Assembly (NCBI GenBank): GCA_964016885.1
Contig: OZ024740.1
Location: forward strand, 179,738,001 to 179,802,000
Direction: 5' to 3'
DNA: 64,000 bases
DNA from: Eledone cirrhosa
Lineage: Eukaryota
A program made the position numbers and the translations under genes. Positions 7,505-64,000 of the stretch are shown here, piece after piece. Under the pieces are notes generated by a model that was not told the DNA's origin, made no database searches, and was given only the letters and a program-made list of their open reading frames with translations. The first letter of the stretch is position 1. Each line of letters starts with the position of its first letter.

Positions 7505-7837
7505 ATATTAATTCAAAATATTAACAAAAATAGACATTCGTGGGATCAAGTATACTTTATTATACATATTTCAGAGGTACTGAGCTAACTTCAACAGTAC
7601 GTCCTCATCAGATAAAATAAGATGATGCATGACATACCCTGACTTAGTAGATGGTTAAGATTCAGTCATGGTAGTCATAATAATAATAATAAAACCATGT
7701 CAGGGTATGTCATGCATCATCTTATTTTATCTGATGAGGACGTACTGTTGGAGTTAGCTCTGTACCTCTGAAATATGTATAATAAAATATACTTGATCAC
7801 ACGAATGTCTATTTTTGTTAATATTTTGAATTAATAT
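7505..7837. repeat. 139-bp inverted repeat (7505-7643 / 7699-7837) between (TA)n tracts; Penelope pLTR-like fold-back
   Basis: arms are reverse complements with a few mismatches; each arm carries a hammerhead motif. Confidence 0.9.
7723..7789 (+). ncRNA. Type I hammerhead ribozyme (mirror copy on minus strand ~7553-7619)
   Basis: stem I tattttat/ataaaata; CTGATGA 7731; stem II gga-c-gtac/gtac-c-tct; GAAA 7770; quasi-palindromic stem III atatgtat; AUA cleavage triplet. Confidence 0.75.
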
Positions 7838-8020
7838 TAATAACTCCGGAAAACCATAACTGTTGAGTACTTCCAATCTATTGTAAAACTCATTCTTTGA
7901 TTTCTTCATTGAACCTTGTTTAACCTTTATATATATATACATATATATATATATATATATATATATATATATATATATATATATATATATAGTTATGTAA
8001 TAAACAATATAAGATAGTTA

Positions 8021-8084
8021 ATTCATTTACCAGTGGTTTCTTGAACACAGATATTTATATCTGTCTTCAGTCGTCAGAACGAAT
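8021..8084 (-). ncRNA. Type I hammerhead ribozyme
   Basis: minus strand reads attcgtt CTGACGA c tgaagacagatat aa atatctgtgttca a GAAA cca c tgg TA aatgaat: stems I, II and III pair, GUA site. Confidence 0.8.
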
Positions 8085-8666
8085 AAAATGCAATGTTTAT
8101 TAAATATGGATTTGAAAACAAAATTTAGGATAAATGAAAGTGAGGTTGAAACCAAATAACGGGCAAAGAATTGAGGGGAAAAATATATAAATAACTATCC
8201 AGAATATAAACATACAGACACTAAAACACGCGCTTATATTTAATAGTACGTAAACGTATACATTCTCACATAAATGTATGTGCGTCTACATGGAAATACG
8301 AACAACGCATATAAACGCGTGATCTTTTGCTCAGATATGTGCGCACAGAAGCGCACACACTCGCACATATACTCAATAATAACGTAAAATCTATATATAC
8401 ATACATGCATATCCCTCCATACTCATATACACAAATATATATATATATATATATATATATATATATATATATATATATATATATATATACACATATATAC
8501 GCACGGATATATATACACACAAACACAAACACATATATAAACATGTATACACACACATACACATAAATACATAAACACAAGTCTCTATGCATACATGCAC
8601 ATATATATACACACACACGTATACATAGAACCATATAAACACATACATATCCATACATATATATAT

Positions 8667-11527
8667 ACAAAGACGGTTGAACTGCTTTACGTTGAGTACT
8701 CTCTATATTATTGCATTACGATTGACCATACGGAATAGACCAGCTCTATACAGTGGTGAACCTCAAACCTGAATAAATAACGCTCCTGAAATGTTGAGCA
8801 CTTCAAAATGTAATAATCAACAGCGGCATGGGACTGAATATATCTAACCACAATTCGAACTTTGGCTACCCGGTGCTTTCGCCTGGCCCTTTGCTACTCC
8901 CCTCACAGAATATCCGAACTTCGACGAAACTCCACGGACTGGACCATAACATGCATTGTACTGCACTGAATTAACTAAATGGCTACCCTATACTTCTGGG
9001 CATGTATAACTCACACTGAACTCCCAGACTCGAACACGCACTGTTTCCACATCTATATGCATTATCTGACTGCAACTTGAACTATATTGTATTTCTCCTG
9101 CGTCTTGAACTCTCCATTTAATAGACAACGACTCTTGTTTGTTTATTTATATCTTTACATCTCTATTTGCTGTATTAATGCTCCTCCACGTATTCTACCT
9201 CTATACATCCATGTACTTTCTACTTCCCTTATTCGGACTTTTACTCGCGTGTACCCTCAGCACACGTCACTGGAATATTTCCCCCTGGGAACATAAATAC
9301 CGCAACCTGAACTATATTGTATTTCTCCTGTCTCTTGAACTCTACATTTACTAGACAACGACTATTGTTTGTTTATCTATATCTTCACATCTTTGTTTGC
9401 TGTATTAATGTCCTGATTTCTCCATCTTACTCCAACACCACTCTTGTTGGTTTATTTACATGTTTATACCTATATATTGATATGTTTATATATTTATACC
9501 TCTGCTGTACCAATGTGCTCTTCCACGTATTCCACTTCTATGTATCCATGTATTTCTACTCCTCACATTGGGACCTGTACCCATTAGCACACGACACTAG
9601 AATGTCTCCTCCTGAGAACAAAAATTAAACATTACACGACTATATCCCGTACTCTACATCCCACTAGGATAAATTACAGATCTACATAATACAATTAACG
9701 TTTCTTCATAAAAGACTATTTAATTAAACCCCGCAACCCAAAACCTCATAGAAGTTATTTGAATGTCTAATCTTCAATTTTCTGTTTGTTCAATTCTCAA
9801 TCCTCTTACTCCTTAGTTTTATAATGTTATTATGAATTCTTTCAACTTCATCCGATAGAGTTAAGCAAAATTCTAAAGTTCCAACTTTCTGTCGGACCGT
9901 TGGGTGGGTTTTAGCGGCGGCGCGACCAGCTCCCTGGCGAACGGGCTCACCTGGAGTGCTTGGAAAAATAAATTTCCCCTTCTTTCGGTAAATGAAAATA
10001 CTCGGCGTGGCTTAATTAGCCATGGGGCCCGGGGCGCGGCCGGTGTTATAACCGCCAAATAGTACCTTTAAATTACAGAACAATTCGGAAATATTAGATA
10101 TATCAACCTGAAACTGTTGAGCTTTAAATTTTCTAACCTCTTTAATATGGAATATTGATTATTAATTTATTAATTTTTTAACTTCATCCTATAAGTCTAA
10201 ACATTGTAACACACTGACCCCCAATATATTCACCTCTGCTAAGATGCGAGTCCCTGTGAAAATTTTGTCGCGCCACTCCTGGCCCGACTGTGGTGTGACA
10301 TTAATATCGACCTTCCTTCCTCTCTCTTTCTATCTTCCTTCTTGTAGCTATCAACCATTACTCTTTTACTTCTCTAAGCAAAATTTTAAAGTTCCAACTT
10401 TCTGTCGGACTATTGGGTAGGTTTTAATGGCGGCGCGACCAGCTCCCTGGCGAACGGGCTCACCTGGAGTGCTTGGAAAAATAAATTTCCCCTTCTTTCG
10501 GTAAATGAAAATACTCGGCGTGGCTTAATTAGCCATGGGGCCCGGGGCGCGGCCGGTGTTGTAACCGCCAAATAGTACCTTTAAATTACAGAACAATTCG
10601 GAAATATTAGATATATCAACCTGAAACTGTTGAGCTTTAAATTTTCTAACCTCTTTAATATGGAATATTGATTATTAATTTTTTTAACTTCATCCTAGAA
10701 GTCTAAACACTGTAAAACACTGACTCCCAATATATTCACCTCCGCTAAGATGCGGGTCCCTGTGAAAATTTTCTCACGCCACTCCTGGCTTGACCGTGGT
10801 CTGACATTAATATCGACCTTTCTTCCTCTTTCTTTCTATCTTCCTTCTTGTAGCCATCAACCCTTACTTTTCTACTTCTCTCTTCCCTTCCTTCTCTCCT
10901 CCCCTCCTCCTGTCTTCCTCCCGCAGACTTATCTTCCTTCCCCCTCTTGCTTGCCTATATCTGACCAGTAGTAGTTGCCTTCCTCTTTTAGCTGACATTA
11001 ACCCTGACTTCTCTTCTTCTTTCTTCCCCCTTCTTCTCCTTCCTTTCTTTCTTTCTTTCTTTCTTTTACCTTGTGTCATGGGATCGACGTTAACCTATGC
11101 TCCCATCCCTTTCTGTTTTCGTTCATCTGACCGGTAGTAGCATACTATAAAATTTAGCCACGTCACTCCAGGGCGACCGGCTGAGGTTGAAGGAACAGAA
11201 TAGCGGTCGCTCTCGGGTCTCGATTTTCAGCCCCATGGATTTTACCTATTACATTCACGTATTATATTTCGAATACCTGATGATATCACCGGATTCATAC
11301 GGAACCCGGTCATTGAAATGATCATAGTATAATAAACCTTTCAAGGATTTACACAAATCCAGCCTCCTGTCATTTCATTATAATATTTAACTCCGTAATA
11401 GCACCACCAACTACAAAAACAAAGACGGTTGAACTGCTTTACGTTGAGTACTCTCTATATTATTGCATTACGATTGACCATACGGAATAGACCAGCTCTA
11501 TACAGTGGTGAACCTCAAACCTGAATA
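8667..11527 (+). mobile_element. Non-coding ~2.86-kb element with 109-bp terminal direct repeats (8667-8775, 11419-11527), internal duplications and a 3' hammerhead
   Basis: matching terminal repeats flanked by TA-rich tracts; internal ~513-bp tandem (9862/10375) and ~100-bp duplication (~9076/~9306); no credible ORF. Confidence 0.8.
11273..11330 (+). ncRNA. Type I hammerhead ribozyme followed by AATAAA
   Basis: atac CTGATGA t atcaccgg...ccggtcat t GAAA tgatca TA gtat; palindromic stem III atgatcat; aataaa 11331-11336. Confidence 0.75.
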
Positions 11528-62278: not shown

Positions 62279-62781
62279 TACCTCATTTTACTAGTCTCAA
62301 GAACGCGTCTCCACAACGTGAGAAAGAATCCCAAAAGGCGGAGGGGGAGATAGTCACGCGATATAACGGTCGAGAAACAGAGCTAAGCCTCTTATAACCC
62401 CGAAGAAAATACCACGGAGGCGGAGGGGGTATTTATATCGAAGCCGTAGAAGAGGTGGTGAAGGAGGCGAGAAGTATGAGTAATGAAAGCTTTCCAGCAG
62501 TCCCCACACTTCAAAGATTGCTCGACCAGAGGGAGTTATTAACAATATATTTAGAAACACACAGATACATGCGGACACACACATATACATGAATGCATCC
62601 GCACCCAACCATGAGTTAAGGGTGCCAACTTCACCGATGTTGCTCAATGAATGACTGGGACAGACCAATCCGGTTGAACCAGACTGAACCAGTATCAGAG
62701 TTAAAAATACATTATGAAGAGAGAAGAAACATTTAGATATAATTAGTAATAAAATGTATCATACCTAAACTGCTCCTAGAT

Positions 62782-62871
62782 TCCTCGACTACGTAGTTTC
62801 GTGGCATAAACAAAAACAATATATCATAAAGATATAGAGTCCTTGCGAGGTCTGCCGACTTATCAAGAGGA
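62782..62871 (-). ncRNA. Type I hammerhead, U3-A8 variant, copy 2
   Basis: identical, offset +593. Confidence 0.78.
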
Positions 62872-63374
62872 TACCTCATTTTACTAGTCTCAAGAACGCG
62901 TCTCCACAACGTGAGAAAGAATCCCAAAAGGCGGAGGGGGAGATAGTCACGCGATATAACGGTCGAGAAACAGAGCTAAGCCTCTTATAACCCCGAAGAA
63001 AATACCACGGAGGCGGAGGGGGTATTTATATCGAAGCCGTAGAAGAGGTGGTGAAGGAGGCGAGAAGTATGAGTAATGAAAGCTTTCCAGCAGTCCCCAC
63101 ACTTCAAAGATTGCTCGACCAGAGGGAGTTATTAACAATATATTTAGAAACACACAGATACATGCGGACACACACATATACATGAATGCATCCGCACCCA
63201 ACCATGAGTTAAGGGTGCCAACTTCACCGATGTTGCTCAATGAATGACTGGGACAGACCAATCCGGTTGAACCAGACTGAACCAGTATCAGAGTTAAAAA
63301 TACATTATGAAGAGAGAAGAAACATTTAGATATAATTAGTAATAAAATGTATCATACCTAAACTGCTCCTAGAT

Positions 63375-63464
63375 TCCTCGACTACGTAGTTTCGTGGCAT
63401 AAACAAAAACAATATATCATAAAGATATAGAGTCCTTGCGAGGTCTGCCGACTTATCAAGAGGA
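63375..63464 (-). ncRNA. Type I hammerhead, U3-A8 variant, copy 3 (a fourth copy starts on + at 63967)
   Basis: identical, offset +1186. Confidence 0.78.
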
Positions 63465-64000
63465 TACCTCATTTTACTAGTCTCAAGAACGCGTCTCCAC
63501 AACGTGAGAAAGAATCCCAAAAGGCGGAGGGGGAGATAGTCACGCGATATAACGGTCGAGAAACAGAGCTAAGCCTCTTATAACCCCGAAGAAAATACCA
63601 CGGAGGCGGAGGGGGTATTTATATCGAAGCCCATGGTTGGGTGCGGATGCATTCATGTATATGTGTGTGTCCGCATGTATCTGTGTGTTTCTAAATATAT
63701 TGTTAATAACTCCCTCTGGTCGAGCAATCTTTGAAGTGTGGGGACTGCTGGAAAGCTTTCATTACTCATACTTCTCGCCTCCTTCACCACCTCTTCTACG
63801 GCTTCGATATAAATACCCCCTCCGCCTCCGTGGTATTTTCTTCGGGGTTATAAGAGGCTTAGCTCTGTTTCTCGACCGTTATATCGCGTGACTATCTCCC
63901 CCTCCGCCTTTTGGGATTCTTTCTCACGTTGTGGAGACGCGTTCTTGAGACTAGTAAAATGAGGTATCCTCTTGATAAGTCGGCAGACCTCGCAAGGACT

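Follow-up and report, generated by a model that had tools for sequence, protein, structure and literature searches.

Hammerhead motifs at (TA)n runs in the Eledone cirrhosa genome as probable 3′ ends of many Penelope-like element families, coding and non-coding

The window analysed here, 64,000 nucleotides of Eledone cirrhosa (assembly GCA_964016885.1, contig OZ024740.1, positions 179,738,001 to 179,802,000 of the forward strand), is AT-rich repeat DNA from a 3.0-Gb genome, in which relics of LINEs (long interspersed nuclear elements) as well as numerous (TA)n runs lie among many hammerhead ribozyme motifs; coordinates below are those of the window. The hammerhead-bearing sequences fall into 14 families (F1 to F14), of which seven are the 3′ ends, or pseudo-long terminal repeats (pLTRs), of coding Penelope-like elements (PLEs), six are non-coding repeat units, and F5 may belong to either class. 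The reading that we favour, with good though not complete confidence, is that the 3′ ends of many PLE families have been piled into (TA)n by Hydra-type double priming at two hairpins, the seven coding-linked families as 5′-truncated copies and the six non-coding ones as units likely copied in trans. This bears on two open questions, namely how PLEs make tailed, inverted insertions and how non-coding retrozymes recruit their enzyme, for which this genome combines helpers that are young and intact, young passengers that are non-coding, a hairpin that may serve for recognition, a near-absolute end rule and an estimated 125,000-260,000 intact-core hammerheads, natural core variants included.

Searched with a descriptor that demands an exact core (CUGANGA or its U3:A8 form) and scores the helices, the window yields 13 type I hammerhead motifs with intact core, whereas 40 block shuffles yield none; a strict version yields two against a mean of 0.017 over 60 shuffles, in line with what had been seen in the first-pass annotation, a reading of the bare sequence by a model. 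The descriptor matches, with their strands, are as follows:

7611−, 7731+, 8077−, 11277+, 27019+, 27487+, 28990−, 33390−, 34871−, 35239+, 62273−, 62866−, 63459−

All 13 have the CUGANGA/GAAA/UH core, three helices and open helix I of type I, and the eight sites that had been called intact carry the full core and three helices in every case, that at 62-63k (F8) being the U3:A8 variant. Among seven sites that had been listed as mutated, six are recognisable: 13.0k (F9) has G8U in the window copy, the core being intact at 12 of 13 F9 loci; 32.9k and 39.7k each carry G12A; and 42.8k (F13) has lost the start of its core. At the other two, the changes are not decay of one copy but family-wide, namely A9U in 17 of 18 rows at 42.1k (F11) and U4C in 20 of 25 rows at 43.3k (F14), where four further rows are the window copy again. 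The seventh, 42.5k (F12), does not fit type I, is atypical in all five copies printed, and is not a convincing hammerhead. A scan of the window with Rfam, with E allowed up to 5, gave 130 matches, none of them to a hammerhead family, and these were rejected as chance hits driven by microsatellites. The window motifs are real and are predicted, from their sequence, to be ribozymes.

The same descriptor applied to 80 evenly spaced 10-kb stretches of the genome (800,000 bases) finds 53 motifs, where three shuffles gave 4, 2 and 2; this is a density of about 63 per Mb and corresponds to about 188,000 genome-wide (bootstrap 125,000-260,000), which is a lower bound, because weak minimal forms drop below the cut. 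The association with (TA)n that had been proposed holds both in the window, where 9 of 13 motifs lie within 300 bp of (TA)6 or longer against 25% of random positions, and in the sample (41 of 49 scored motifs, against 28% of random positions and 48% of matched positions in the same stretches), while CA, GA and triplet runs show no excess near window and sample motifs. The TA run is downstream in 55 of 66 motifs and upstream in 28, and the 66 motifs form 22 flank clusters, the largest of 18. Loop III is self-complementary in 38 of the 53 sample motifs and helix III has at most three pairs as a monomer in 42, which fits cleavage as a dimer as described for PLE hammerheads (PMC4209133); the claim of a palindromic stem III stands for most motifs and fails for 28.9k (F5) and 34.8k (F7), whose helices III are ordinary hairpins of 4 and 8 pairs. 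At least two additional families have U3:A8 cores and a long helix III (L096:7830, L129:7998, L133:692, L140:7553), and a further non-coding tandem family of 310 bp has a minimal hammerhead (L337:618-1238, L188).

In every family tested the insertions end at two fixed positions, at most 165 nt apart, on the downstream side of the hammerhead; F4 is left out of the count because its internal (TA)n spoils it. The short and long end sites, in nucleotides after GAAA, are as follows:

F1, 64 and 161
F2, 49 and 116
F3, 69 and 208
F5, 39 and 128
F6, 151 and 189
F7, 184 and 273
F8, 91 and 256
F11, 70 and 225
F13, 63 and 173
F14, 59 and 223

Partial tandems and fold-backs, both reported earlier, are present, and with F4 again set aside 66 of the 67 fold-backs lacking an inner (TA)n pair one short with one long end; the F14 fold-backs, judged by eye, do so in six of six, for an overall 72 of 73. 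Fold-back ends on both sides abut (TA)n, and both F8 ends recur as loose ends in (TA)n among contigs of run X1. PLEs are known for a one-sided tail and an inverted copy (PMC8557442). Of 22 fold-backs compared, nine have the long arm extending further 5′, six the short arm, and in seven the two are equal, a comparison that leaves out the F5 (25) and F7 (2) fold-backs because their references are too short upstream. Since the short arm reaches further in six, the two arms are not in all cases original and copy, and a single self-priming fold-back is accordingly rejected as the sole route.

Most ends share a predicted hairpin of the form RCUC...GAGY, which occurs in coding as well as non-coding families: of the 15 ends tested, 11 are followed by it at a distance of 2-16 nt, against 0.6% of random positions. 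Both ends of F14, which were found later, match when the last letter is left free (background 1.1%), and the first pair covaries, being A-U at five ends, G-C at seven and mismatched at two. The example after the short end of F1 is as follows:

7843 to 7869, plus strand: RCUC/GAGY hairpin

Inspection by eye finds the hairpin clearly in three of six published Hydra consensuses (Hydra-2_Amil of a coral, Hydra-1_Ajap and Hydra-2_Ajap of a sea cucumber), nearly so in one, and unclearly in two. The earlier statement that the elements have no similarity outside the ribozyme is therefore not upheld, also because the 32.9k copy belongs to the 27k family (F4). In structural terms, the predicted hairpin likely marks the point where the enzyme starts copying, and F4, F6 and F9, in which it is absent or displaced, may use another helper. 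Neither this hairpin nor a hammerhead survey of such a genome was found in the literature searched, which misses most subscription papers; the words "hairpin" and "stem-loop" do not occur in the main text of PMC8557442, nor does "ribozyme" in PMC13282606.

Five of the seven coding-linked families are of Hydra type (F1, F2, F11, F13 and F14), with insertion into (TA)n and a 3′ hammerhead, and F10 and F12 end other coding PLEs; two of the seven links to an open reading frame (ORF) rest on one locus. Their copies in the window, with the other PLE pieces, are as follows:

7500 to 7927, unstranded: F1 fold-back, pLTR of a coding Hydra-type PLE; hammerheads 7561-7611 (minus) and 7731-7781 (plus); short end left and long end right, both in (TA)n
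7992 to 8200 (upper boundary approximate), minus strand: F2 copy, short, of the pLTR of another Hydra-type PLE; hammerhead 8028-8077
12410 to 12843 (lower boundary approximate), minus strand: older Hydra-type PLE, 5′-truncated; endonuclease end and start of the 3′ untranslated region (UTR)
36338 to 39774, plus strand: F10 decayed coding PLE; remnants of reverse transcriptase (RT) and endonuclease, long 3′ UTR, terminal minimal hammerhead 39651-39690 with G12A
39789 to 41610, plus strand: Neptune-like PLE copy, 5′-truncated, of a young intact family; GIY-YIG end and 3′ UTR
41870 to 42334 (lower boundary approximate), unstranded: F11 fold-back, 3′ end of a Hydra-type PLE; hammerhead 42063-42171 (minus) with family-wide A9U
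42353 to 42743, unstranded: F12 fold-back, 3′ end of a coding PLE that is very young; stretch 42504-42537 (minus) resembles a hammerhead but is atypical
42801 to 43014, plus strand: F13 3′ end of a PLE, likely of Hydra type; hammerhead 42809-42862, core start lost
43036 to 44852, minus strand: F14 3′ UTR, hammerhead 43243-43289 with family-wide U4C, and tail of a young intact 832-aa Hydra-type PLE

Over 1,821 bp the F14 copy matches the 3′ UTR, hammerhead and tail of an intact element at 92.8% identity. This element belongs to a young, abundant family in which many copies have kept the 832-aa frame open, and at locus L379 F14 sits between two tandem ORFs. The L379 protein, and in part L197/L198, has by eye the DKT and RW-type motifs (the third residue of the latter not being K), the CxCX5C linker and the C-terminal CxxC and CxH of the Hydra clade as set out in section 11 of PMC8557442; it has no Pfam match to GIY-YIG, GIY-YIG-like residues being seen by eye only, and its layout resembles Hydra-1_Obim. 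In the sample of 800,000 bases, 22,460 lie in Hydra-type ORF matches, which are spread over 21 of the 80 stretches. For F1, hammerhead and tail stand in sense directly before a PLE ORF at 8 of 30 loci, and an apparent antisense arrangement at L193 was rejected as a fold-back junction; for F2, an ORF match lies 392 nt downstream at L121 with no TA in between (1 of 80 random stretches); for F11, the endonuclease end is upstream in the same sense at 7 of 24 loci; and for F13 the link is seen at one locus. F12 closes a very young GIY-YIG element, the link being seen at one of five loci read, and, being 99% identical at dozens of sites with an atypical core (judged from five printed copies and that identity), it moves with a doubtful ribozyme. 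The family of the 12.6k relic was rejected as a direct source of hammerheads, none being clearly attached in sense in 20 loci.

The Neptune-like family has the RT, CX2-5CxxC linker, C-terminal GIY-YIG and upstream ORF1 of its clade, an intact 784-aa frame, and at least 98% identity in 150 of 150 scored matches. Like the 832-aa family it is young and abundant, and the view of the PLEs as mere relics has to be given up. Its 3′ UTR was searched for a canonical hammerhead core and has none, for which reason the young Neptune-like element was rejected as origin of the window hammerheads. In the copy at L050, ORF1 (about 455 aa) overlaps the 784-aa RT-endonuclease and the tail is 40 bp, and 27880-28860 resembles an older piece of Neptune-like 3′ UTR.

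In six families (F3, F4, F6, F7, F8 and F9) the sequence past the long end re-enters the start of its own unit, in which the longest ORF beginning with Met is 55-78 aa, and no ORF link of pLTR type was seen in the 12-24 loci read for each. These six, with F5, are represented as follows:

8670 to 11525, plus strand: F3 young non-coding unit of 2.75 kb; terminal repeat, internal 0.5-kb duplication, hammerhead 11277-11326, second hairpin 8782-8800
12912 to 13400, minus strand: F9 non-coding unit of about 490 bp; hammerhead 12985-13064, G8U in the window copy only
26676 to 27828, plus strand: F4 tandem non-coding unit of 468 bp; internal (TA)n, hammerheads at 27019 and 27487
28861 to 29055, unstranded: F5 short fold-back; hammerhead 28952-28990 (minus), decayed partner on plus
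32590 to 33120 (boundaries approximate), minus strand: older F4 copy; hammerhead 32851-32891, G12A
33183 to 33745, unstranded: F6 fold-back; non-coding unit about 420 bp long, hammerhead 33357-33390 (minus)
34650 to 35558, unstranded: F7 fold-back; non-coding unit about 510 bp long, hammerheads 34806-34871 (minus) and 35239-35304 (plus), long helix III
61952 to 64000, unstranded: F8 very young non-coding tandem unit of 593 bp; head-to-head array that turns at 63632 and ends 131 bp beyond the window; U3:A8 hammerheads 62190-62277, 62783-62870 and 63376-63463 (minus)

With tandem non-coding units, a type I hammerhead in each and a GC content of 35-42% (limit 45%), F4, F6, F7, F8 and F9 agree with the definition of non-LTR retrozymes, whereas the F3 unit, at 2.75 kb against 51-972 bp in Li et al., is better named a non-autonomous PLE. 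F8 and F3 are 97-100% identical among their top matches, and F8 arrays, which reach six identical units, lie at many dispersed sites with 98-100% identity and PLE-type ends at each. The F5 loci consist of short fold-backs only. The internal (TA)n of F4 varies in length and is a target for more insertions, and contig 17 of run X5 (621 nt, low depth, the run labelled as another organism) holds a whole F8 unit head to tail, which could be tandem DNA, a circle or carry-over. Overall, the picture of a PLE-mobilised, non-autonomous and non-coding system is borne out as to PLE origin, (TA)n targeting and the non-autonomous state of these six families, and not as to all families being non-coding or unrelated; as seven of the 14 (F1, F2, F10, F11, F12, F13 and F14) end coding PLEs, the loss of novelty that the first-pass annotation had itself foreseen for truncated pLTRs applies to half the set.

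These features might be accounted for as follows. A tandem array would be transcribed, and a Hydra-type RT/GIY-YIG protein, likely a dimer, would bind two hairpins in the RNA and nick both strands of a (TA)n run; reverse transcription would then be primed twice, a few bases 5′ of each hairpin, and the two cDNAs, having stopped early, would be joined head to head. Non-coding units would be mobilised in trans by proteins of coding PLEs, and multimeric RNA would be cut to length or closed into circles by the hammerhead, which in most families would act as a dimer by way of its self-complementary helix III. An anole PLE protein does extend both strands from two internal start sites, and hammerhead mutants leave its insertion in vitro unaffected (PMC11167929). 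The hammerhead is probably not needed for insertion: U4C, which is weak in vitro (PMC3088659), and the atypical or missing cores of young coding families suggest that cleavage is optional, while in F8 the covariation to U3:A8, a form known to be active (PMC3088659) and one that PLEs of schistosomes also carry (PMC4209133), suggests that cleavage is under selection. It is possible, and we propose it only tentatively, that Hydra-clade proteins of coral, sea cucumber and Eledone cirrhosa read a two-hairpin RCUC/GAGY code, in which one hairpin per subunit fixes the priming site on each strand; this would explain both the one-sided tail and the inverted duplication, and retrozymes would be mobilised by keeping the code rather than the ribozyme.

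Several observations weigh against this account. The motif was defined on the same ends on which its 11 matches were scored; its strict pattern is missing from both F6 ends and from the short ends of F7 and F11, it was not seen in F4 or F9, and at both F8 ends it has an A-C mismatch, while RNAfold forms the closing helix in just eight of the 11 matches. One F6 fold-back has two long ends, and the anole PLE shows no difference in start site between strands (PMC11167929). No non-coding family is tied by sequence to a single helper, and two F6 loci adjoin PLE coding pieces without intervening TA, which we read as insertions into PLEs. The hammerhead fold comes within 1 kcal of the best fold in just one of 13 short window fragments, folded as monomers with a simplified structure. 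Finally, the loci were picked by likeness to window copies, and the proportions are not unbiased.

Three other explanations were considered. The non-coding units might spread through RNA circles made by the hammerhead, in a rolling-circle manner, with cleavage essential and the hairpin as incidental pLTR baggage. This would make sense of the arrays of up to six identical units, and the compensatory U3:A8 core, found in 50 of 50 F8 rows, together with the frequent self-complementarity of loop III, points to selection on the ribozyme; moreover, retrozyme circles have been shown in coral, mussel and axolotl (PMC7229834). However, insertions end at two fixed sites apart from the cleavage site, young families move with U4C, atypical or no canonical cores, and the anole mutants tell against essential cleavage, all of which makes this explanation unlikely, even though circles and double priming are not mutually exclusive. 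It is very unlikely that all the "non-coding" families are truncated ends of unsampled coding PLEs whose arrays arose later by unequal crossing-over. Only 12-24 loci were read for each family, and copies joined to an ORF are uncommon also where a link exists (in F1, 2 of 25 loci reached the ORF), but F3, F6, F7, F8 and F9 return to their own start past the long end with no ORF there, and the dispersed, near-identical F8 arrays each have PLE-type ends. That every family is a non-coding, non-autonomous ribozyme element independent of the others, with the coding PLEs as relics apart from them, is hardly credible: six families are indeed non-coding units, most copies of every family lack an ORF and none of 13 fragments with Neptune-like protein matches has a scored downstream hammerhead at a stricter cut, but seven families run into coding PLEs, intact young PLEs exist, and the tandem ORFs around F14 at L379 largely refute it.

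PLE hammerheads and retrozymes are already published (PMC4209133, PMC7229834, PMC8557442), and derivation of retrozymes from PLEs has been argued (bioRxiv 10.64898/2026.07.22.740005); less known are the long tails, strict end pairing and shared hairpin, which together make double priming a testable mechanism. The Hydra clade of PLEs with a C-terminal endonuclease (EN+), as described by Craig et al. (2021, PMC8557442), shares the DKT and RW motifs, the CxCX5C linker, (TA)n targets, a canonical 3′ hammerhead, partial tandems, an inverted 5′-truncated copy and a tail at one end. Tails here are up to 165 nt against 30-40 bp in that description, and there are many subfamilies, about 2.8% of sampled DNA in ORF matches and 3′ UTRs that reach 1.5 kb. 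The non-LTR retrozymes of Metazoa (Cervera and de la Pena, 2020, PMC7229834; Li et al., 2026, bioRxiv 10.64898/2026.07.22.740005) likewise consist of non-coding units in tandem, every unit holding one type I hammerhead, with GC below 45% and a likely PLE origin, whereas the present units, studied as DNA, measure 420-593 bp with one of 2.75 kb, form PLE-type two-end fold-back insertions in (TA)n and, within a single genome, belong to many families. The minimal hammerheads of PLEs (Cervera and de la Pena, 2014, PMC4209133) also occur as many variable families per genome, mostly apart from full PLEs, with opposite-strand pairs 100-700 bp apart, the U3:A8 variant and a palindromic loop III, but helices I and II are longer here. 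The number estimated here, about 190,000, exceeds both the thousands in PMC4209133 and the 126,247 in axolotl (PMC7229834), counts made with differing descriptors. The anole Poseidon element PAc (Frangieh et al., 2024, PMC11167929) shares two internal RT start sites that define the tail, an AT-rich target, extension of both strands and a dispensable hammerhead; its start sites show no strand bias in vitro, whereas in Eledone cirrhosa nearly all fold-backs (72 of 73) use a different site on either side, a separate hairpin goes with each site, and the distance between the sites is greater.

Some other features of the window may be mentioned. On the minus strand at 41700-41805, a CUGAUGA core that the first-pass annotation had overlooked has its partner strands in a non-circular order (cleavage strand, GAAA, CUGAUGA), helix II being apparently completed by an upstream strand; it resembles type-SGC hammerheads as described in PMC10085705. 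A generic scan of the sample for such scrambled orders was not above shuffles (5 against 4, 3 and 1), and four related copies of this motif are present in the 80 stretches, two with a covarying helix I. Decayed LINE-type RT elements lie on both strands at 699-6287 and 60100-61300, and copies of a 195-bp repeat resembling short interspersed nuclear elements are found at 106-293, 12212-12406, 21330-21524, 24300-24495 and 56229-56813, with three in tandem at 56.2k.

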